A DNA stretch of 64,000 bases from a virus: the UHGV virus genome UHGV-1351772, one strand, 5' to 3'. The notes beneath the pieces were generated by a model. That model made no database searches. It worked only from the letters and a program-made list of their open reading frames with translations, and had not been told where the DNA came from. Shown in pieces: positions 10,668 through 59,438 of this stretch; the stretch's first letter is position 1; each line of letters opens with the position of its first letter. The translations under genes were made by a program, and so were the position numbers.

Positions 10668-10688
10668 TCGACAGCGAAAAAAAATAGT

Positions 10689-11304: not shown

Positions 11305-11314
11305 CCCCCCCCCC
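11305..11314. repeat. homopolymeric C10 tract (G10 on the minus strand), intergenic
   Basis: Ten consecutive C read directly; lies about 50 nt upstream of the minus-strand start at 11256. Confidence 0.9.
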
Positions 11315-21621: not shown

Positions 21622-21631
21622 GGGGGGGGGG
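21622..21631. repeat. homopolymeric G10 tract (C10 on the minus strand), intergenic
   Basis: Ten consecutive G read directly; about 27 nt upstream of the minus-strand start at 21595. Confidence 0.9.
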
Positions 21632-22944: not shown

Positions 22945-23792
22945 AATTGTCCTTCCTTCTTAATGTAATCTTCAACCAACTTATCAAACACGATTTTTAT
23001 CTTCTCGCGTTCTTCTTCACCCAATTCACCGGAACAGGTTAGTCCGTTTATCTTCCCATACCGTAACTCCAACACATATTTCAACCGATGACGTAAGGCT
23101 TGATCAAAATGCGTTGGAATATAGATCGGTTCGAAATTGTGCAATAAAATAAAATTGTCTTCGGTGTGTTTAGGGGGTTCGAATTTTACTTTATCTAAGA
23201 TAGTAAGCCAGCGTTGTCTGTCGACTAACCGATCGTCCCAATAAACAGGTTTTGTTTTAGAGGGGGTAAATGTGTTGTAGTTACTGGAATCGGAGATACG
23301 GAAATTTGCTGTGACATAAGTCTTCGTGAGTAACGAGAGAAGACAAATCGTTCCTTCTTCGGAGTAACTTAAACCCTCGTCGAGTATGTCCTTAGCTTTC
23401 TTGAAGTAGTCCTCAATATAGTTTTCAGCAATTGGTTGAATCTCTACTTCTATAGCGCTAATTTGAGGCCCGTCTATCCGTAAAGGAAATTTTAGTTCAC
23501 CAATATATTGCCTATCCGATGTATAAGCACGCGTAACAATAGGGTACGTAACAGGCTTAGCCAAATGACGATATTCACCAACCCTAATGACTGCGGAACG
23601 TCCAAAGTCACCTTTATTCGATTTTGAAAAACCGTAAAGGTCTTTTAGATACTCTAGATACTGACCATCCGTCATTTCATCGGTATTAAATTCACGAATG
23701 TATAGTCGATTAAAAGATCCTTCTGTTTGTTCGTAGTAATAACCAGGGTCCCTATTTGCTAGAATGTGCGGGAGATAATACGGGTGATACAT
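22941..23792 (-). CDS. hypothetical protein
   Basis: 283-aa ORF; AAAGGAGGA RBS upstream of the start. Confidence 0.55.
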   Translation of the reverse strand: MYHPYYLPHILANRDPGYYYEQTEGSFNRLYIREFNTDEMTDGQYLEYLKDLYGFSKSNKGDFGRSAVIRVGEYRHLAKPVTYPIVTRAYTSDRQYIGELKFPLRIDGPQISAIEVEIQPIAENYIEDYFKKAKDILDEGLSYSEEGTICLLSLLTKTYVTANFRISDSSNYNTFTPSKTKPVYWDDRLVDRQRWLTILDKVKFEPPKHTEDNFILLHNFEPIYIPTHFDQALRHRLKYVLELRYGKINGLTCSGELGEEEREKIKIVFDKLVEDYIKKEGQL

Positions 23793-23820
23793 CTAATCCT
23801 CCTTTAGGCTATAACTAATG

Positions 23821-23870
23821 GAGTGAATGTAAATTTCACTCTCTCCTAGGTAATATATATCTGAGAAAAA
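23821..23870 (-). promoter_or_regulatory. conserved promoter-like motif with 5' hairpin (copy 2 of 4)
   Basis: CAGATATATATTACCTAGG on the minus strand followed by hairpin GAGTGAA/TTCACTC; sits between a terminator and the gene start at 23792. Confidence 0.5.
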
Positions 23871-23908
23871 ATATAAAAACCGTAGGATGGACTAAGTCCA
23901 TCCTACGG
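23871..23908 (-). terminator. rho-independent terminator of the tailspike transcript (minus strand)
   Basis: 12-bp stem CCGTAGGATGGA / TCCATCCTACGG followed on the minus strand by a T-run. Confidence 0.7.
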
Positions 23909-23914
23909 TTTAAA

Positions 23915-26041
23915 TTAAATAACTACCCAGCTTTTACCATCAGAGCCAATCTGCATTAGCGTAATACTTTCATTGGTCTCAATGGGTTTGGCAAGACCTT
24001 CCGTCCCACTCTTTGGAGTGATGAGAACGTTTGAGTTTTCCGGTTTAACGATGATCTTACCAGCCTTATTTGCCACGATCTGTATATTTCTACCCACACT
24101 ATATTCTAGATCAGGAATAGTAAGTTGGCCGCCACGGTTGGTGGCTGGGAAATACACATAAGACGACACATCTTCCTCAGATAACACTATACCACCAGAA
24201 TCACGATTGACCGAGATCTCAAACTTAGAAATATCGATATCGTAGGCAGTAACTTTCGTAATATCCGTCAGAACCAATTCGTTCAAATTGGTCTTAGCTG
24301 TACTGTTCGCCAGATCAAATGGGGTACCTTCCGTACCGTCAAGCACAGGCGTGACTTTGATTTTATTGTCACCCGGATAAATGATTTCAAACGTATGCCA
24401 GTTATTATCGTACGCACCAAAAGATCCTAATTGCACATTCTGCTTTTTATGATGCATCAGATAAAGATTCGTACCGTCGGTCTGTAAGAAAAAAGACATT
24501 AAGTACGGGTTCGTATCAGCCACACCAGCGTCAGCAAGTGTAGTACCAGAAGGTAGGTCGGACGCGGAAATACGCCAATAAAGTCCTAATCCGAAACGAT
24601 CTGCTGCTAAATCACCTTTTAGTCTAAAAGTAACGGTCAGACGTCCACCGTAACGTATCATGTCCGCAGCAGATGTCATTGACTTAGTTACATTCCAAGG
24701 TTTCATCGTTACAGCCTTTCTTAATTCGACGAAATGCCCGTTTCCATCCTCAGAATCTTGCACGGTTACGTTACAATCAACGATATTGTTCCAACCCTGC
24801 CCTTTCAGGGAACCATCTCCACGACGTCCGTTATAACCCACAGACTCTACTAATGGGGTATAGCTTCTTACCACATTCATATTGTCTTTGAGCTCTTTAG
24901 TGTCGTTCTTCGTCAGGAGCATTGCACCATTCGCTGTTCTTGATAATATCTCAGCAGCTATTCTCTCTGAGATAATACCGCGTCGTGCCCAAGAACTGAA
25001 ATGGCTATTCCTTGTTTCAGACGTCCAGTTTTTATTACTACGGGTGGCAGCACCGTAGTAGGCAGCACCAGCGATATCAGGATCGTCAGTGGGATCATTA
25101 GTCGGTACACGTTGGCCATTATCGTCGTACATGAATGGAACAAAAAAGATATTTTTTTGTTCATTGTTACGATAATTACCGTATATGGTTTCATATTGAA
25201 CAGGATATTTTTCCTTCCAATAGTAGGTAGTGTCCCCGCAGATCCATGGTACTTCGGCGGTGTCGTACTCGGGCATCTGAGAGAGATGGTCAGAGAGATC
25301 AGTTCGGAAACGCTCTACCATTGCCATAAATAACGCTGGTTGTTGTGCGTAACCTACTTTAGTCAGATCATACTCCCCCTGCATCCACACTACAGCCAAG
25401 AGTTTATTTTTAGGATTAACGTCCAGAGCTTTTTTGGTCCGGCTAACTAAATCTTTATAAAGAGGTTTTTCCACCCCCCATACCGATGACGTCGCAGAGG
25501 CTCCTGTGGCTTCATCGAAGGTACCTTCTGCACCACCCGTGAAAGCAGAACCGCCGCGTGCGCAGGGTACTAGTAAGATACCAGCGTTGCTAGGAATATA
25601 CGGGAGAAGACGCTTCGCGATGTGTAGACCTTGACCCACACATCCGTATTCACCTTTGTCCAAATTGGCTTTGGGGTGCGAGAATACGGACATATCTTGC
25701 ACGTCGTGCAGACAGTGATCCGCTGGAATGACGTCGTTATACTTACAATCAGCACCATTAGGCGTTACCTTCGCACGGCGCGCCATTTGTTTAATCCGCG
25801 GATCGGGAGCGTCCAACGTCGCTGGTAAAGGCAATCCTTCACCATAACTCATCGCATTAGATTGCCCGGCTATAGGGATCACGAAGTAATAATCCGGTTC
25901 CGTCACCCCCCCCCCTTGAAGTTCTGCAATATCAATTTTATATTCTTTTTCTTCCTTAGAAAGGAGAACTACCGCACCTTTGAGATCGCCAGAGAAATTG
26001 TCGAGTTCATGGATACGTTTCTTTCCAATTGGTTGAACCAT
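23915..26041 (-). CDS. tailspike/tail-fibre protein with sialate-O-acetylesterase-like (SASA/SGNH) domain
   Basis: GGAGGT RBS before the ATG at 26041 (track start 26053 is TTG); N-terminal 40 aa homologous to the N-terminus of the 1519-aa fibre; GQSNAM esterase motif. Confidence 0.65.
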   Translation of the reverse strand: MVQPIGKKRIHELDNFSGDLKGAVVLLSKEEKEYKIDIAELQGGGVTEPDYYFVIPIAGQSNAMSYGEGLPLPATLDAPDPRIKQMARRAKVTPNGADCKYNDVIPADHCLHDVQDMSVFSHPKANLDKGEYGCVGQGLHIAKRLLPYIPSNAGILLVPCARGGSAFTGGAEGTFDEATGASATSSVWGVEKPLYKDLVSRTKKALDVNPKNKLLAVVWMQGEYDLTKVGYAQQPALFMAMVERFRTDLSDHLSQMPEYDTAEVPWICGDTTYYWKEKYPVQYETIYGNYRNNEQKNIFFVPFMYDDNGQRVPTNDPTDDPDIAGAAYYGAATRSNKNWTSETRNSHFSSWARRGIISERIAAEILSRTANGAMLLTKNDTKELKDNMNVVRSYTPLVESVGYNGRRGDGSLKGQGWNNIVDCNVTVQDSEDGNGHFVELRKAVTMKPWNVTKSMTSAADMIRYGGRLTVTFRLKGDLAADRFGLGLYWRISASDLPSGTTLADAGVADTNPYLMSFFLQTDGTNLYLMHHKKQNVQLGSFGAYDNNWHTFEIIYPGDNKIKVTPVLDGTEGTPFDLANSTAKTNLNELVLTDITKVTAYDIDISKFEISVNRDSGGIVLSEEDVSSYVYFPATNRGGQLTIPDLEYSVGRNIQIVANKAGKIIVKPENSNVLITPKSGTEGLAKPIETNESITLMQIGSDGKSWVVI
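25906..25915. repeat. homopolymeric C10 tract (G10 in the mRNA) inside the tailspike coding sequence
   Basis: Ten consecutive C read directly; encodes GGG plus the first base of Val at codons 43-46, at the junction between anchor and enzymatic domain. Confidence 0.9.
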
Positions 26042-26076
26042 TGTAACCTCCAATTTTTAAACCAATACTCTTCCGG

Positions 26077-26349
26077 TTAGCGCGACATACCGTTCTGTGA
26101 TAAGGCAGTACCAACGATAAGTTTAACCGGGGTTTGTTCTTCCGTAATAGGGATTTCATCGAGATTGTTGATATCAATAGTAACATCATGGACTTTAGGC
26201 ATTGTTACCAAGATAGTCAACATTACCACCGATGCTTTTGTGGAAGTATCCGCAACGTGATATTTAACGTCCAGTAATTCGTTACTTTCAGATAAGTAGA
26301 GCATTTGCGGATAGATTGTTATCGATGTAAAAAAAAATACCAACACCAC
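26077..26349 (-). CDS. hypothetical protein
   Basis: 90-aa ORF between fibre-module genes. Confidence 0.4.
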   Translation of the reverse strand: MVLVFFFTSITIYPQMLYLSESNELLDVKYHVADTSTKASVVMLTILVTMPKVHDVTIDINNLDEIPITEEQTPVKLIVGTALSQNGMSR

Positions 26350-26363
26350 TTAAGTTTTAGCCA

Positions 26364-26879
26364 TTAATGATCTCCGAAGGTTAATGCACAATTATCTGCG
26401 GTAACGATTAAATCGTCGTCTTTTGTTACTGCGGCTTCTTCACCGTTACCGAAAACCAGAACAGAGAATTGACCTTTATAACCTAATGAACCAGGCGATA
26501 CCTGCAACGTTACCGCGTCTTTTCCTACAGTAAATGAATCATCTGTTAGATCTTCAGCTTGTAAGTTACTGCCACAAGCTGCGTTAATCGCTTCGATTAA
26601 ATCGTGTGTGGTAAACCCTTCCCCGGCTACTTTTACCAGAATAGGTTGCTGGTTTAACCACCGCTCTGCGGTTAAACGGTTGTAATAGATCTGCAACGTT
26701 CTGTTTCCAGGACGCTTAATCTTTACAACGGCAGTGGTGTCACGATTCATCTCTTCAGTAGGATTTACGTTGCTGAACTCAACCTCGTTTTCTTGCAGAT
26801 CGAGCTGAAGGTCGTGGTTGATCAGCGATATAACCATGTTAGTTGAAGTTAATGATAAATCTGGTGTGAATTGCCCCAT
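26364..26879 (-). CDS. hypothetical protein, small-protein paralog family (member 5 of 6)
   Basis: GGAGGT RBS before the ATG at 26879 (track start 26894 lies in the RBS); N-terminus FTPDLSLTS...ISLINHD parallels 33100..33660. Confidence 0.55.
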   Translation of the reverse strand: MGQFTPDLSLTSTNMVISLINHDLQLDLQENEVEFSNVNPTEEMNRDTTAVVKIKRPGNRTLQIYYNRLTAERWLNQQPILVKVAGEGFTTHDLIEAINAACGSNLQAEDLTDDSFTVGKDAVTLQVSPGSLGYKGQFSVLVFGNGEEAAVTKDDDLIVTADNCALTFGDH

Positions 26880-26977
26880 AAAGTTTACCTCCAACGGTTA
26901 GGGGAGTCATAAAATGTTGGCTAAAACATTTCACCCCTCCCCCGATTATGTTTTCAAGCACTATGACTTGAAAATAA

Positions 26978-27481
26978 TTAGCTAATTCTCAAATCACGTA
27001 GTGCGCCTGTTGACTTCATCACGTTTTGGAACGCAGCGCTGATGTTATTAGTCCAGTAATAATGCTGACCGTTAATAACTTGCTGGTAAGACAGCGCGCA
27101 GGTGTTGCCACCTAAGTTTACAGTGATGTTAGAGGCTCTGCCGCCTTGTAAGTAAACCGCTAAAGTAGGCTTTGCGTTAGCAACTACCGTCGTTAACTGT
27201 AACTCGATACCTACTAAAGTTCCCACCCCGCAGTTACCAGCGTTTTGAATGGTTCCCTGATTTTTCTGGTTTAACGGCCAGCTTGGTCCTACTGCGCCCC
27301 ATTTCTTACCTAAAGAATCGCTATATGCAGCGGTTGCAATTTTACAGCCCATAGATCGTCCCACCATTTGACTCATCATAAAAGGTCTACCCAATCCTAA
27401 TTTACTACCCGCAGCGCTCATCCATTGTTGGCCAGTTTCATTCCTAGCTGAAGATCCGACCCATCCTGACGCTACCCCCAT
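26978..27481 (-). CDS. glycine-rich protein (short paralog of 27498..28280)
   Basis: GGAGGG RBS; N-terminus GWVGSSARNETGQQWMS matches GWIGSSAKAEAGNGWMS of the neighbour. Confidence 0.55.
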   Translation of the reverse strand: MGVASGWVGSSARNETGQQWMSAAGSKLGLGRPFMMSQMVGRSMGCKIATAAYSDSLGKKWGAVGPSWPLNQKNQGTIQNAGNCGVGTLVGIELQLTTVVANAKPTLAVYLQGGRASNITVNLGGNTCALSYQQVINGQHYYWTNNISAAFQNVMKSTGALRDLRIS

Positions 27482-27497
27482 CTACCCTCCTTTTTAA

Positions 27498-28280
27498 TTA
27501 AACACGTGAACCGTATATTGCACCTACTGCGTCCCATCTTGGCGCATTACCAGTAACAGCTGCACCAGCTGCTCCGCCGTTATATTCTGTACCGTTACCT
27601 TGAGTATTACATCTTCCTCCACCAGCACCGACATTACCACCCGAACCGCCTGTATATGCACTAAGAGACCCCTCACCAACAGATCCTCTACCAGGAGCGG
27701 AAATAGTACCAGCAGCCGCACCGGAACTCATATGAGAGGAAGACCCACCAGCACCGAATGGGCGACCACCGCCACCACCAAATATTAGTCTACCCCTGTT
27801 ACCGCCGCCACCGCCACCACCGCCTCCGGCAATAGCGCCACGGTTGGTTATACGCAGTCTGTTTCCTATTCCGTTCTGTATTGCGGTTCCACCTGCACCG
27901 CCTGGTGAGTTAGAACCGCCGTTGCCTCCTCTGCCGTATACTGTAACCCCAGGATTGATGATGAGGGTAATATACGAATTTGGAAGATTGCTAGGGAACT
28001 CTAAACAAGGAACCCCGCTACTATAAGACACTAAATCCCCTGTAATGGTCACAACGACAGCAGTAGAGCCTATGGAACGTAAATAGTTAATAAGCGTATC
28101 TTTATTGTAATTGTGATTAGCCCCGATCGAATACTGAGCCTCTTTTGATTTTCCCGCCAATTGCGACATCCAGCCTGGGACCGGCACACCAAGTGTGCGC
28201 ATCGCGCCAGACATCCAACCGTTACCAGCTTCAGCTTTTGCTGAAGAACCAATCCATCCGGGAGTCGCTGATACAGACAA
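27498..28280 (-). CDS. glycine-rich protein with poly-Gly segments (possible fibre-associated structural protein)
   Basis: Probable TTG start at 28280 after AGGTGG RBS (the track ORF runs to 28331 with no RBS); G9 and G5 runs plus GGxGG repeats. Confidence 0.5.
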   Translation of the reverse strand: MSVSATPGWIGSSAKAEAGNGWMSGAMRTLGVPVPGWMSQLAGKSKEAQYSIGANHNYNKDTLINYLRSIGSTAVVVTITGDLVSYSSGVPCLEFPSNLPNSYITLIINPGVTVYGRGGNGGSNSPGGAGGTAIQNGIGNRLRITNRGAIAGGGGGGGGGNRGRLIFGGGGGRPFGAGGSSSHMSSGAAAGTISAPGRGSVGEGSLSAYTGGSGGNVGAGGGRCNTQGNGTEYNGGAAGAAVTGNAPRWDAVGAIYGSRV

Positions 28281-28337
28281 AATAACCACCTTATAACGTA
28301 CTTGTGAGTCAGTGAGGGGGTTTCCCCTCACTGATAA

Positions 28338-31300
28338 TTATAACTTGGTCTCAATTATCTCCGACAACTCCTTTATTGCCTCAATAAGTAGAGCTATTTG
28401 GGCAGAGTTAGAGACCGTCAAAACGTCCTCACCATTAGCGTCTTTATAAGTAGAAACTGCTTCAGGTAACACTTTTTGTAAGGTCTGCGCTACAACACCA
28501 GCCTCACGATGAACATTAGTGGATTTAAAGTTCTCCTTTTTGTCGTATATTAAACCTGACAATTTCTTTACCTTCTCCAATGCATTAGTTATTGGAGAGA
28601 AATTACTTTTCAGTCGGGCGTCTGATCGTATATAAACGTCGTTAAAGTTACCGTTTCCACCACAAACCCAAGTACCGTCGTTTTGCAAATAAGCATTACC
28701 GTCAGTGCCATTATCAGTACGTGAGTTGTTTATCATGTAAAAGCCAAATTGACTGTTACCTAAACCACCAACAAAATATTTCCTATCAGCATGGTCTTGT
28801 CTTAACAATGCCTGAGCAGAACTAGTTCCTACCTTATTAAGACCAAAAATAACGTTATGGTCTCTCATGCTAATCCAAGAACCTGAGTTGCTGTTAATAG
28901 AATATCTATTTGCATAAACCCAAGTATTGGTTCTTATATCTCCGGTAACGTTGAGAGGTTTATTGCTTTGAACAGCCCCACTCGTAAAGCGTAAAACATG
29001 AGCATTATTGGCGTAAACATCTAGAACACCATCCCCGTTCTGCTTAAGGCCGGTGTCATTATCCCCTAAAACTATAGAGTTCCCGCCTAAAGCATTAGGG
29101 GTTCCAATACCCAATGCCCCATTCAATTGACCGCCAGATAATGGCAACGCCCCAACATCCGCAGCAGTTGGCTTGTTTCTCGTATTGTACACGCGACGCC
29201 AACCTGGTGAGTAAGCATCGCCGTTAAATACGTAGATAAACTCCGCATTAGTGAGTGCGCCGGAGACGCTCGTCGTTGTGGCGGTCGTTATACGGATCGT
29301 GTAGTTGTTTGTGCTATTGCCATTACTAATCACTTCTATAACGGCCCCAGCTAACGGAATAGCCCCACAACCCGTCTCGCTGTGTGGTATGTGCGCACTA
29401 GCGGCATAAGCCCACGCACAACGAGCAACCCACGATCTTGTGGTAAACGCGCCGTTATTTTTCAATAACGTCACTAGCTGTGCTGTAGTTATTGCAGCGC
29501 CATCAGCGCCAGTTTCTAACCAACCACTAGGCGATGCCGGGCAACCTATATCGGCAGGCCCTAACGATATATTTCTAGTGCCGTCAAATGCGATACCGTT
29601 AATGGTACGAGCTGTCTGCAACTTTGTGGCCGTGGCTGCGTTTCCGGTAGTCGACTGATTACCCGTCTGGTTTACACCAGGTAAACTGATGTCTTTAGTA
29701 CCATCAAAAGCCACACCGCCTATATTTCGCGCAGTCTGAAGTTTAGTCGCTGTCGCAGCATTACCTGTCGTATTCTGGTTGCCTTGCTGGTTAACCCCCG
29801 GTAAATTGATATCCCCAGTACCGTCAAACGTAACCCCACCAATTCTGCGAGCGGTTTTCAGTTTCGTCGCGGTAGCGGCGTTGCCGGTAGTATCTTGATT
29901 ACCTGTGGTATTTACGCCAGGAATGCTGTCACGGGCAGTATAAACTTGTGCCCAATCTGACCACGGCGCATCCGCTGTATCACGTCGACTACGAATATAA
30001 ACGGGTGCGTGCGCACCACTCGTCCCCGACCATCCGATTAACAACTCACCTTCACCTAGCGCAGTAGCGCCACCCAAATGCAGTAAGTTACCATAAGCGG
30101 TAGGATAACCGTTATTGTAAACTTCGTACATCTGAATACCAGGCGTACCTTTGTTTGAACCGGTTAGTGCAGTAACCCGACCACGACCCACCAAGGTGTT
30201 GATATTGATGTCAGCAGAACCATCGAATCTCACACCGTTAATATTTCTGGCAGTTTGAAGTTTAGTGGCTGTACCGGCATTACCCGTGGTGTTTTGATTA
30301 CCTTGTTGGTTAACACCCGGGAGGTTAATATCACCACTGCCGTCGAAAGCGACTCCACCAATTCTACGTGCGGTCTTTAATTTCGTTGCGGTTGAAGCAT
30401 TGCCGGTTAACTCGCCTGCTAACCCTTTTGCAAAGGTCTGTTTTTCTGCCCAGGTGTGTGCTGCATTCAATACAGGCATCTGGCGCGGTGTAATCGTACG
30501 ACTACCTTTCTCACCAGCGATACGTACTGCAAAGAATCGATAGTTGGCAGTAGACACCGTACTACGCCAAACCAACATACTCCGGGCTGAGGATGCGCCA
30601 TCTGATGGACCAACCAGAATGCTAACTAGGTTACCGTCAATAACACCCCAATCCATTCCCGTAGGAATGTTTTTCATGGTGTTAAGCGGCGTACAGATTA
30701 ACTCACCTGGTTTAAAGTCATAGGTTTGCCAGTCTAAAGGATCAACATTCGCACGTTCACCGCCGATACCTAATACCAGCGGAAGCGAATACGATGTGAA
30801 AACCTCACGCCAATCGCTCCAAGCGTTACCCGTACGGATACGTTGGAATTTACGACCTTTAGTTTCTACACCCGTACCGTATGTAGTATAATTCTGTTCG
30901 ACCCCTGTACCGTCTAAGCGTAAGGTAACTTCACAAACACCTAATATGGTTTCACCAGAAGAACCGGTAAGTGGGCCATTAGTTGCTTCACCAGTGACAC
31001 TGAAACGTCCCGGTTTAACGAGATCGTTAAAATTGGCTTTAAAGAAAGCACCGTCAGTCTGATAACCAACCTGAATCCAATCTTCCCATTGCGGGTTTGA
31101 TGAATCCCACGTTGCGGTCAAACCACGAACATACATCGTACCACGACGTGTGGTGTATCGTTGCAACCGTCCGAAAAGACCACCTTCCATTACTTCTAGT
31201 ACGCCTTGCGCGCCACCACCTTCTTCAGGGTAATGTCTGCTAAAAACAGCCAGCGAACTGGACGAGTTTCGCCAGTTACCCATATGCTCAGCGCCACCCA

Positions 31301-32897
31301 GAGAGTTCAAGTCTATAGAGGTAGATAACGGACGTACACCAGTAGTTACCATTCTCCACGGTGACCAGGGTCCATTGGCACCATTCCACGCACCTGACAA
31401 CATACGGTTGTACACGTTACCATTACGACAGGTAAAACGTTGCGCACCGCTGTAATTACCGGCTTTATACACTTCCAGATAACCGACCGCACCGTCTTCT
31501 GGGAAGTGTTTTGCCATCGACGCATTGGTTGACGTCGACTTAGCCCACGTTCCTGTGTAATTGGCATCTGGAGCAAATGTGTTAATATCGGCATCCGCAG
31601 GCATTTCACCACGGAAACGCAGATAGGTGTCAGGCGATAGACCGATATTGCGGGCAAACGTTTCTTTATCTGGGATATCAGCGCCGTTAGAGTTTTTCTG
31701 TAACGCGCTATTCGCTTTATCTACAGTGGCTTTTAATCCCAAGAAATTGATGATATCCGCAGTTGTCCCTTTCGCTAACAGGGTTCTGGCTGTTTCTGTA
31801 AAGTCAGTTAATCCGACTTTATTAGCACCGGTGAAATAGGGGAGCTTGTTTGCTGCGGATGTGACTGCGGCAATAGCGGTGAGTAGCGGACTGATAGGTT
31901 GCTTCTGCGCAAGTTTCTCAGTAATCGTAGTCGCGAAGTTAGGGTCATTACCTAACGCCTCGGCTAATTCCGCTAAGGTATCTAACGTTTCAGGTGAAGA
32001 CCCAACCAATTCCGCAATCGCGGCACGCACCCAAGCCGTTGTGGAGATGCTCGTGTCGTTTGAATCTTTCGGGGGTGTTGGTGACGTCGGCTTACCCGTA
32101 AAATTCGGCGAATGTTTGTTAGCCTTTAACTGTAGTTCGTCATTCAACTGCTTAACTGTAGACGGTGTAGCAGCCTCCGTCACGGATTCGCTAGTCAGGG
32201 TATTGTTAAGTTTAACGATACCTTTACCAGTCGTACTAGCGTCGATTAAGCCCTGTGCAGCGATTTTCTCCGCACGCAGTGCAGCTGATTCCGAGCGCGT
32301 AGCTGCGCCTTCTGAGCTTTCTTTATCTTTCGTGACCTGCGCAGCAACCTTTTCCACTGCGCCCTTACTGGCCTCAACTGAAGCTGCGGTATTTGCGATA
32401 CTGGTAGCCGTCTGTTGTACTTGCCCGGCTTTTTGCGTAACCGTTTCTGCTTTCTTAGTTACATCAGCCGCTGCAGCCGTCACCGATTGTTCGCTTGTAG
32501 CGATAGCTTGAGCTTTCTCATTTACCGACTGTAATACAGTATCTACGGCAGTTTTCGCGGCTAAAACTTCAGCGTGTTTTTTGCTAACCTCAGCAGTTTT
32601 AGTGGCAACGGTTCCCGCTTGCTCGCTAACTGTGGAAGCTAACGTGTCAGTTTGTTGCTTCGCTGTTTCTGCTAAGTCTTTTGCTTGTGTGGCTTCTGTT
32701 GCAGACTGTTGCGATTTGGCCGCCGCCGTTTGTGCGTCAGCAACCGCGTTTCTGACGGTGTCAATATCCGCAACAATCTCGCGGACAGGTAACTGATAAT
32801 CCCTTTCGTCTTTCGAAAAAAGTAAAACGCCTTCACCGATATCCCCGGTGTATGGACGTAAATCGTGTAAACGAATTTTCTTTACCGCTTTAGCCAT
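28338..32897 (-). CDS. long tail fibre protein with C-terminal intramolecular-chaperone (peptidase S74-like) domain
   Basis: 1519 aa; repeated TGNAxTATKLxTAR(N/R)I(G/N)GVxFDG units; C-terminal SDARLKSNF motif typical of self-cleaving chaperone domains. Confidence 0.75.
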   Translation of the reverse strand: MAKAVKKIRLHDLRPYTGDIGEGVLLFSKDERDYQLPVREIVADIDTVRNAVADAQTAAAKSQQSATEATQAKDLAETAKQQTDTLASTVSEQAGTVATKTAEVSKKHAEVLAAKTAVDTVLQSVNEKAQAIATSEQSVTAAAADVTKKAETVTQKAGQVQQTATSIANTAASVEASKGAVEKVAAQVTKDKESSEGAATRSESAALRAEKIAAQGLIDASTTGKGIVKLNNTLTSESVTEAATPSTVKQLNDELQLKANKHSPNFTGKPTSPTPPKDSNDTSISTTAWVRAAIAELVGSSPETLDTLAELAEALGNDPNFATTITEKLAQKQPISPLLTAIAAVTSAANKLPYFTGANKVGLTDFTETARTLLAKGTTADIINFLGLKATVDKANSALQKNSNGADIPDKETFARNIGLSPDTYLRFRGEMPADADINTFAPDANYTGTWAKSTSTNASMAKHFPEDGAVGYLEVYKAGNYSGAQRFTCRNGNVYNRMLSGAWNGANGPWSPWRMVTTGVRPLSTSIDLNSLGGAEHMGNWRNSSSSLAVFSRHYPEEGGGAQGVLEVMEGGLFGRLQRYTTRRGTMYVRGLTATWDSSNPQWEDWIQVGYQTDGAFFKANFNDLVKPGRFSVTGEATNGPLTGSSGETILGVCEVTLRLDGTGVEQNYTTYGTGVETKGRKFQRIRTGNAWSDWREVFTSYSLPLVLGIGGERANVDPLDWQTYDFKPGELICTPLNTMKNIPTGMDWGVIDGNLVSILVGPSDGASSARSMLVWRSTVSTANYRFFAVRIAGEKGSRTITPRQMPVLNAAHTWAEKQTFAKGLAGELTGNASTATKLKTARRIGGVAFDGSGDINLPGVNQQGNQNTTGNAGTATKLQTARNINGVRFDGSADININTLVGRGRVTALTGSNKGTPGIQMYEVYNNGYPTAYGNLLHLGGATALGEGELLIGWSGTSGAHAPVYIRSRRDTADAPWSDWAQVYTARDSIPGVNTTGNQDTTGNAATATKLKTARRIGGVTFDGTGDINLPGVNQQGNQNTTGNAATATKLQTARNIGGVAFDGTKDISLPGVNQTGNQSTTGNAATATKLQTARTINGIAFDGTRNISLGPADIGCPASPSGWLETGADGAAITTAQLVTLLKNNGAFTTRSWVARCAWAYAASAHIPHSETGCGAIPLAGAVIEVISNGNSTNNYTIRITTATTTSVSGALTNAEFIYVFNGDAYSPGWRRVYNTRNKPTAADVGALPLSGGQLNGALGIGTPNALGGNSIVLGDNDTGLKQNGDGVLDVYANNAHVLRFTSGAVQSNKPLNVTGDIRTNTWVYANRYSINSNSGSWISMRDHNVIFGLNKVGTSSAQALLRQDHADRKYFVGGLGNSQFGFYMINNSRTDNGTDGNAYLQNDGTWVCGGNGNFNDVYIRSDARLKSNFSPITNALEKVKKLSGLIYDKKENFKSTNVHREAGVVAQTLQKVLPEAVSTYKDANGEDVLTVSNSAQIALLIEAIKELSEIIETKL
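29560..29940 (-). repeat. tandem about 120-nt coding repeats within the fibre gene (three copies)
   Basis: Nucleotide and protein repeats (TATKLQTAR..NG..FDG) read directly. Confidence 0.7.
30180..30410 (-). repeat. second block of the same fibre repeat (two copies)
   Basis: Same repeat unit as 29560..29940, separated by about 240 nt of unique sequence. Confidence 0.65.
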
Positions 32898-33671: not shown

Positions 33672-33720
33672 AGATCAAAAAAAAATAAAACACCTACCGC
33701 CCATAGAATCGGGCGGTAGG
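33672..33720 (-). terminator. rho-independent terminator (minus strand)
   Basis: Stem CCTACCGCCC / GGGCGGTAGG followed by T9 on the minus strand. Confidence 0.65.
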
Positions 33721-45227: not shown

Positions 45228-45268
45228 AGGGTAAAAAAAAGAAACCCGCCCCTACCGTTAAGTAGGGG
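45228..45268 (-). terminator. rho-independent terminator (minus strand)
   Basis: Stem CCCCTAC / GTAGGGG followed by T8 on the minus strand. Confidence 0.55.
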
Positions 45269-49035: not shown

Positions 49036-49081
49036 TGAAAAAAAAAGAAAGCAGGAGAGAACCTTTTCAGGGTTCTCTCCT
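49036..49081 (-). terminator. rho-independent terminator (minus strand)
   Basis: Stem AGGAGAGAACC / GGTTCTCTCCT followed by T9 on the minus strand. Confidence 0.65.
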
Positions 49082-59413: not shown

Positions 59414-59438
59414 ATAGCAAAAAAAATAATTCGAGCTT

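Follow-up and report, generated by a model that had tools for sequence, protein, structure and literature searches.

A length-variable G10 tract in the glycine linker of a NanS-type esterase tailspike gene: a probable ON/OFF contingency locus in an SPN3US/phiEaH2-like jumbo phage

The DNA analysed here (the window) is a stretch of 64,000 nt from the virus genome UHGV-1351772. On its minus strand it carries a gene (23915-26041) for a tailspike of 708 amino acids (aa), in which an N-terminal anchor is joined through a glycine linker to a NanS-type SASA esterase, followed by a NanS-p-like C-terminal domain (DUF6645) and an unassigned tail of ~95 aa, and the linker is encoded within an uninterrupted run of ten G residues. 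An earlier note on this DNA had proposed that slippage in the run turns the tailspike on and off or, alternatively, that the run directs a programmed frameshift. The open reading frame (ORF) of 708 codons extends on the minus strand from an ATG at 26041-26039 to a TAA at 23917-23915. A GGAGG ribosome-binding site (26047-26051, minus strand) is positioned 5 nt upstream of the start codon, and directly past the stop codon there is an intrinsic-terminator-like hairpin, a 16-bp stem followed by a T run (23877-23911, minus strand), which forms the 3' end of the cassette.

The anchor module (residues 1-42; 25916-26041, minus strand) is common to the 1519-aa fibre encoded in the window and to the 731-aa and 206-aa cassettes of relatives. 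Residues 1-41 are 34% identical over 41 aa to the N-terminus of the 1519-aa fibre, the identity with the 206-aa alternative cassette is 51% over 47 aa, and the anchor motif is also present in the 731-aa cassette. The tailspike has the structure of a modular receptor-binding protein, a shared N-terminus attached to unrelated distal parts. The esterase domain (residues 45-366; 24944-25909, minus strand) is homologous to NanS/YjhS of E. coli (PDB 3PT5, E 1e-121), an enzyme that acts as a 9-O-acetyl-N-acetylneuraminate esterase. It has a GQSN motif that lies at most 20 residues past the tract and aligns with PDB 3PT5, and the SASA catalytic domain is recognized by Pfam (PF03629) at 42.4 bits, with a cut-off of 24.8. 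The C-terminal NanS-p-like domain (residues 402-612; 24206-24838, minus strand) matches PDB 6YP6 at E 3e-36 and Pfam DUF6645 (PF20350) at E 7e-29. Stx-prophage NanS-p proteins are ~50% identical to the 708-aa protein from residue 45-49 on, and matches to PHROG 143 and to the NanS-p proteins of Stx phages begin at residues 44-49. The boundary between anchor and esterase is set by these alignments within 3 residues and, with similarity to other anchors ending at residue 41 and NanS/YjhS homology beginning at residue 45, the tract lies between the two modules, where the earlier note had placed it.

NanS-p proteins have an N-terminal domain designated DUF1737. A Pfam search with residues 1-44 of the tailspike returned nothing at E <= 0.01, and no N-terminal domain of the NanS-p type was recognized there. 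That the anchor might be a diverged form of the NanS-p N-terminal domain was considered and rejected, as the homologue from phage 2B8 has no visible similarity to the tailspike before the 'EPDWYY' motif. The SASA domain with its homology to a solved structure and the C-terminal DUF6645/6YP6 domain are both those of the NanS/NanS-p family and, judged by this domain content, the tailspike is a member of that family with a fibre anchor in place of the N-terminal domain. The presumptive virion spike of this jumbo phage is a NanS-p-type sialate O-acetylesterase, an arrangement that recalls the receptor-destroying esterases of animal viruses; candidate substrates are O-acetylated sialic acid in mucus, the K1 capsule and O-antigen.

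The tract itself occupies 25906-25915, where the plus strand reads C10 and the coding, minus strand reads G10. The run provides the codons for G43, G44 and G45 plus the first base of V46 (CAA GGG GGG GGG GTG; Q42-G43-G44-G45-V46), precisely the codons 43-46 that the earlier note had given. At the same junction in the 206-aa cassette of relatives, the linker is GGG or GGT and is encoded by mixed codons (GGG GGT GGT, or GGA GGC GGT). As a paralogous cassette has a glycine linker with such mixed codons in this position, the homopolymer is not needed for the protein and reflects codon choice. At the 3' end of the run is the sequence GTGA (25903-25906, minus strand), in which TGA, the in-frame stop of an allele with nine G residues, overlaps GTG (V46), the start chosen by gene callers for a 663-aa ORF in alleles with either nine or eleven G residues (G9 and G11).

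Homopolymers of this length are rare in the window. There are three G10/C10 runs, compared with 0.08 expected, and three or more were reached in only 1 of 100 dinucleotide shuffles. G/C runs of 7-9 nt are absent from the entire 64 kb, the next longest having 6 nt. Homopolymers of at least 7 nt, of any base, number 11, and the only two located inside predicted coding sequence, the G10 and an A7, are both in the tailspike gene. GGG accounts for 18% of the glycine codons in the window and, among the Gly-Gly-Gly tripeptides listed outside the glycine-rich gene for a gp38-like adhesin, no other is encoded by three GGG codons. The G10 run is not a chance feature, and it falls within the size range, a mononucleotide run of ~7-8 nt or more within an ORF, that characterizes the repeats of contingency loci.

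Relatives of the phage have G7, G9, G10 or G11 at this position and the tract is hypermutable, contrary to the invariant length that the earlier note had specified as evidence against switching. An exact look-up of the 708-aa protein identified 7 independent assemblies, all with G10, a sample biased by construction, and further alleles were supplied by a homology search with the tailspike N-terminus and by contigs reached through neighbouring genes. The members of the 90% identity cluster include proteins of 706 aa (...LQG(T/V)TEPE...), one of 707 aa (...LQGGVTEPD...) and one of 663 aa that starts at the GTG right after the tract. The N-terminus search also returned an ORF of 45 aa (MVQP...ELQGGG) and one of 61 aa (...ELQGGGGDGTGLLLRDPYSRAI). 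These are exactly the products computed for G9, in which a TGA is at once in frame and translation ends after 45 aa, and for G11, in which a stop codon follows after 16 more codons and the product has 61 aa. The expectation that slippage to nine or eleven G residues would truncate the protein after the anchor is thus borne out by alleles present in public assemblies.

The alleles that encode 706 aa have no tract and read CAG GGC ACG (relatives L026, L028 and L029), G7 encodes 707 aa (L025), and G10, encoding 708 aa, is present in at least 10 samples, which belong to no fewer than 5 accession series. G9, with the gene divided into ORFs of 45 aa and 663 aa, is present in at least 5 samples (ERZ27287186, in a contig of 224,967 bp, ERR7738532, ERR2368357, ERR2367902 and ERZ15610544); its 45-aa ORF occurs as two variants, P0017 and P0018, the second on a different background, and G9 is also listed from NCBI and ENA. 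G11, with ORFs of 61 aa (P0016) and 663 aa, is found in two samples, ERR14760501 and ERR2368003. The products expected from G6, G8, G12 and G14 were not found in a collection of 15 billion proteins, and the out-of-frame alleles are therefore single steps away from G10. Exact-pattern scans of IMG/VR and of GTDB genomes gave no match, a corresponding scan of JGI and metagenome sequences gave only CYGL01000001.1, and literature searches for the assembly and run accessions returned nothing relevant. One scaffold, L010 (ERZ28628744 scaffold_14, 224,230 bp), ends inside the G tract, which may be due to a break in the assembly where the tract is heterogeneous or difficult to read, or to chance.

Two pairs of sequences separate tract length from other variation. 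L036 (G10) and L016 (G11) have 0 other differences in the 1991 positions compared within the gene and 2 in 900 upstream, and the window haplotype (G10) and L012 (G9) have none in 606 positions downstream and none in 126 upstream. A single local 5' haplotype, with no more than 4 substitutions per ~800 nt, carries G7, G9, G10 or G11. Four lengths on one almost invariant haplotype require at least four changes of length on branches with almost no substitutions, and changes in tract length therefore arise at a far higher pace than point substitutions. At the same time, tracts of at least nine G residues persist on at least four haplotypes that have diverged by ~3.5%, and in the OFF alleles, those with G9 or G11, the 663-codon ORF is uninterrupted despite 70-75 substitutions relative to the window. 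As in established contingency loci, tract length differs between near-identical genomes, and the differences are predicted to switch the product, with 45 aa or 61 aa remaining in frame and the gene being split by gene callers. The assemblies document length polymorphism in DNA on identical backgrounds, together with its computed consequences for the ORF, and the natural alleles, located on several haplotypes with two otherwise identical to G10 alleles, lend support to the ON/OFF slippage proposed in the earlier note.

Slipped-strand mispairing is the established mechanism by which such tracts change length. We consider it likely that the G10 run is a hypermutable ON/OFF tract of the contingency type, operating at the DNA level in the glycine linker of an accessory NanS-type O-acetylesterase tailspike. 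As the phage DNA is replicated, mispairing would add or remove one G residue. With G10 and G7 the frame would be maintained, resulting in an anchored esterase, the ON state. With G9, the TGA directly past the tract would leave an anchor-only peptide of 45 aa and, with G11, the stop codon 16 codons further on would leave a peptide of 61 aa. In both cases the 663-codon esterase ORF that begins at the GTG would be left unattached to an anchor, a state that is OFF as regards the virion. One more slip would restore the frame, so that each state would be heritable yet readily reversible; we infer reversibility because a single further slip is sufficient and because both the +1 and the -1 neighbours of G10 occur. 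Phage populations would then be a mixture of virions with and without the receptor-modifying spike, with the spike presumably attached to the virion through the anchor and the mixture presumably of benefit as bet-hedging.

It is possible that the OFF alleles are leaky or that they still direct synthesis of a free esterase, as suggested by the GTGA overlap, by pairing with the anti-Shine-Dalgarno sequence and by re-pairing of tRNA-Gly. The G run is calculated to pair with the anti-Shine-Dalgarno sequence at -11.7 kcal/mol, compared with -6 to -10.6 kcal/mol for real sites of the phage, and, since tRNA-Gly can re-pair perfectly on the run, a -1 slip at the UGA of G9 would yield the 708-aa protein again.

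A second slippage site in the tailspike gene is provided by an A7 run (25152-25158, minus strand). An A6 allele, present in ERR975218 / GCA_001292545.1 (CYGL01000001.1), splits the gene into ORFs of 360 and 335 aa and, in the Logan assembly of ERR975218, 8.5 kb of sequence match the window except for this A7 to A6 deletion. The NCBI record GCA_001292545.1 (L039, CYGL01000001.1), compared with 23076-29298 of the window, has 0 substitutions and six single-base insertions located outside homopolymers that interrupt the genes for Gp38_N and DUF7941. These insertions are absent from the Logan assembly of ERR975218 and are probably errors in the record.

Runs of similar length are also present between genes. 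An intergenic tract at 21622-21631 (minus strand), C10 on the gene strand, is represented in relatives by C4, C5, C6, C9 or C10, or is absent (CACACC), and so provides a neutral yardstick of tract instability. An intergenic G10 at 11305-11314 (minus strand) lies between two DUF7941 paralogues, where it makes up the 5' arm of a hairpin resembling a terminator, and an interrupted run, G5AG4, at 26934-26943 (minus strand) forms the 5' arm of a hairpin upstream of a DUF7941 gene and is G8 to G11 at the same site in relatives. The hairpins formed by these two intergenic G tracts are stable (-20.6 and -26.1 kcal/mol; z -2.6 and -3.1), and the sequence after every G run is T-purine-purine (TGA, TAA or TAG). 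The idea that the coding tract might likewise be the arm of a hairpin was rejected, as there is no C-run partner downstream and the predicted fold is unremarkable. Several intergenic G/C tracts of 8-11 nt, with lengths that depend on the strain, are present in this phage group, most of them immediately before a DUF7941 paralogue or a fibre gene; in relatives they are located at L009:9102, L010:3106, L025:503, L026:830, L028:289/830, L029:290/830 and L031:2333. Such tracts may function as a terminator, a 5'-untranslated region element or a regulatory switch.

All runs of A8 or A9, read as T on the gene strand, lie between genes (10677-10684, 26329-26337, 33677-33685, 45233-45240, 49038-49046 and 59419-59426). 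There is no A7 beside these runs, and the distribution of lengths is therefore bimodal. At 26329-26337, relatives have T8, T9 or T10. These A8/A9 runs are probably the T-tracts of terminators or untranslated regions.

The portal-type virion protein encoded in the window is ~73% identical to those of SPN3US/phiEaH2-like phages, and internal head proteins, as well as an RNA polymerase subunit, are among the PHROG matches. On the evidence of these proteins, the window is from an SPN3US/phiEaH2-like jumbo phage with receptor-binding proteins of the E. coli type. Searches of INPHARED with the DNA of the junction, and with 24 kb around it, identified no close relative, the only matches being to NanS-p, at ~72% identity, and to a gp38-like piece. 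The receptor-binding proteins of the window are the 1519-aa fibre, which has an S74 chaperone domain, and then gp38-like adhesins. The stretches 26978-28331 and 28338-32897 (minus strand) encode the 1519-aa S74 fibre followed by a T-even-type gp38 adhesin and a second Gp38_N protein. The gp38 adhesin has ~80-90% DNA identity to gp38 of Krischvirus and Tequatrovirus over 300-600 nt, which suggests that a jumbo phage has acquired T4-like adhesins by horizontal transfer.

The tailspike gene is one of several alternative occupants of a slot downstream of a DUF7941 gene (equivalent to 23915-26360; relatives L024-L033), which contains the esterase of 706-708 aa, a 731-aa protein, or proteins of 644 + 206 aa or 172 + 206 aa. 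The ~41-aa anchor begins all of the proteins of the slot cassettes, the 706-708-aa esterase, the 731-aa protein and the 206-aa protein, and the DUF7941-type proteins of 644, 170 and 172 aa that precede them have no anchor. A 75-aa ORF (26077-26304, minus strand) upstream of the tailspike gene shares 37% identity (E 4e-14) with the last ~80 residues of the 206-aa cassette, to which it is homologous, and is probably a remnant of cassette replacement. The esterase cassette from ribosome-binding site to terminator (23844-26089) is 100% identical in DNA sequence across strains in which the flanks differ by 3-10%, with, for example, 28 differences per 250 nt just downstream of the identical cassette. 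This pattern indicates that the esterase cassette has recently spread by recombination among diverged phages.

Several observations weigh against a selected ON/OFF switch. The tract lengths are those of assembled consensus sequences. All six samples of one series (SRR2998xxxx/SRR2999xxxx-type runs) combine the window haplotype with G10, from which it follows that the consensus state is fairly stable. The haplotype of L009, L011 and L014 has been seen only as G9, which could be a fixed loss rather than switching, and three contigs with G9 measure only 0.9-1.5 kb, one of them with a coverage of 2.3, so that an assembly error is possible in these. Counts of synonymous and non-synonymous substitutions (dN/dS-like) gave similar ratios for ON-ON and ON-OFF comparisons and did not tell these lineages apart. 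Repeats of at least 6 nt are under-represented in the tail-fibre genes of the BASEL coliphages (PMC12633550), and such tracts are not a general habit of coliphages. As relatives with the tract-free 706-aa form are common, the tract is not required for the tailspike, and it may have arisen recently, by expansion of a GGG codon without adaptive value.

This last point leads to what we regard as a possible, though unlikely, explanation, namely that the tract is a non-adaptive mutational hotspot. A GGG codon in a linker that tolerates changes in length would have grown by slippage (G4 to G7 to G10), and G9 and G11 would be ordinary loss-of-function mutants of a dispensable spike that drift or are slowly purged, with no selected switch. 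The tract-free state of most relatives and the mixed codons of the paralogous linker are as expected from such a history, as is the haplotype known only as G9. In addition, the intergenic tracts vary in length in the same way with no frame to constrain them, the A7 run also knocks the gene out, and the cassettes of the slot are interchangeable, so that each of them is dispensable. A hotspot does not, however, readily account for the absence of long homopolymers from all other coding sequence in the window when two are present in the tailspike gene, for retention of a tract of at least nine G residues on at least four diverged haplotypes, or for the lack of secondary decay in the OFF alleles. 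The hotspot and the switch invoke the same process and differ only in whether the tract is kept up by selection, on which sequence alone cannot decide.

An elaboration of the ON/OFF switch into three states appears doubtful. G10 would again produce the anchored spike, and G11 would be a null or low-expression state. G9 would be a state in its own right, with the 45-aa anchor peptide possibly capping the docking site and the esterase re-initiated at the GTG that overlaps the stop codon (GTGA) and released at lysis, as with the NanS-p proteins of Stx prophages. Such a system could hedge against hosts or mucus in which O-acetylation of sialic acid or capsule is phase-variable.

It is very improbable that the run is a recoding site, with ribosomal frameshifting or RNA polymerase slippage as its designed function, either to maintain a fixed ratio of full-length to anchor-only product or to rescue G9 and G11. 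tRNA-Gly could re-pair perfectly on the run in either direction, it is calculated to pair with the anti-Shine-Dalgarno sequence at -11.7 kcal/mol, and the OFF alleles have remained intact. In G9 the run also abuts a UGA-C stop, and UGA-C is a weak termination context, as in the case of prfB. Nevertheless, the slippery site is not conserved, the 706-aa alleles having CAG GGC ACG and the 707-aa allele G7, and the trans-frame products, which stop after 0 or 16 codons, contain no domain. The 86 nt downstream fold at -23.8 kcal/mol (z -1.78), and 10 of 200 shuffled sequences fold as well. Slippage by E. coli RNA polymerase is documented mainly on A/T runs, and the variation is directly visible in DNA. 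The programmed frameshift with an anchor-only product that had been put forward as a second option is therefore unsupported, since relatives lack the tract and inspection of the +1 and -1 frames beyond it, which meet a stop codon after 16 or 0 codons, revealed no long trans-frame ORF; nor is there a convincing stimulatory structure downstream. That the different lengths are artefacts of sequencing or assembly at a homopolymer that is truly G10 everywhere is extremely improbable: three G9 contigs are short and one of low coverage, the L010 scaffold ends inside the tract and the NCBI assembly of a near-identical phage has six odd single-base insertions elsewhere, but G9 is present in contigs of 225 kb and 7.3 kb from different projects and pipelines (MEGAHIT-style ENA, Logan, NCBI record), G11 in two ~10-kb contigs from different projects and G10, identically, in at least 10 assemblies, the length differences of several bases in the G7 allele and the intergenic tracts are unlike those that errors produce, and an Illumina consensus is normally reliable at a 10-mer.

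The ON/OFF switch, the interpretation we favour, has precedents. NanS-p proteins are not, to our knowledge, known as virion parts, and we know of experimental demonstrations that homopolymers switch receptor-binding proteins only for Campylobacter phages. In the Campylobacter Fletchervirus, as represented in later accounts, receptor-binding protein genes contain polyG tracts of 7-11 G residues (Sorensen et al. 2021, Cell Rep 35:109214; via PMC12633550, PMC10877375). As far as those accounts relate, the parallel with the tailspike gene is close: in both, a phage gene for a receptor-binding protein contains a G run in the size range of 7-11 nt, a change in its length shifts the frame, and the Fletchervirus population carries virions with different receptor-binding equipment. 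The tailspike differs from the Fletchervirus case, so described, in that the host is E. coli, which is not polyG-phase-varying as Campylobacter is, the phage is an SPN3US-like jumbo phage, the tract is in a linker past the shared anchor of an enzymatic (esterase) spike, and the evidence is natural allele polymorphism rather than laboratory switching or a phenotype.

In T2 and T4, contingency loci have been described in which mononucleotide repeats undergo reversible +/-1 frameshifts by polymerase slippage, read as bet-hedging (Gomez, Barrick & Waters 2025, bioRxiv, PMC12633550), and A runs of this type have been reported in T2/T4 and in other phages (PMC12633550). Phage contingency loci were proposed as a general phenomenon only in 2025, from the A runs in T-even phages (PMC12633550). 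The T2/T4 examples are in genes for DNA modification and lysis timing (for example, 9 A in agt and a run in rIIA; PMC12633550), whereas the tract described here is a G10 in a receptor-binding protein gene and is known from alleles. With the polyG/C contingency loci of Campylobacter, Neisseria, Haemophilus and Bordetella (PMC8355987, PMC1891110, PMC2831843), the tailspike tract would share the mutational mechanism, the ON/OFF logic and a target involved in surface interactions. G10 is also inside the 8-11 nt range in which slippage is frequent (PMC8355987, PMC1891110, PMC2831843). Unlike those loci, it resides in a virus genome that is copied by a phage polymerase, with infection cycles as its generations. 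At the sequence level it has the features of a contingency locus, and it would work like the Fletchervirus and T2/T4 cases.

In comparison with NanS and NanS-p (YjhS, 3PT5; Stx-prophage, 6YP6), the SASA domain and the C-terminal domain of the tailspike are homologous, whereas the N-terminus of the phage 2B8 homologue is replaced by a fibre anchor, there are ~95 extra C-terminal residues and the junction has a polyG tract that NanS-p proteins do not have.

The concept of homopolymer switching is already known; what would be new here is a polyG switch in a receptor-binding protein of an enterobacterial jumbo phage, with ON and OFF alleles already visible in many independent public assemblies. 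For annotation, the consequence is that OFF alleles are called as an ORF of 45 or 61 aa plus a 663-aa 'free esterase'. The matched natural G9, G10 and G11 genotypes on the same haplotype, together with the tract-free relatives as controls, make the bet-hedging proposal testable in E. coli. Such switching would bear on the stability of host range in phage therapy, and the presumptive presence of the enzyme in the virion raises the question of what role a virion-borne sialate O-acetylesterase plays.

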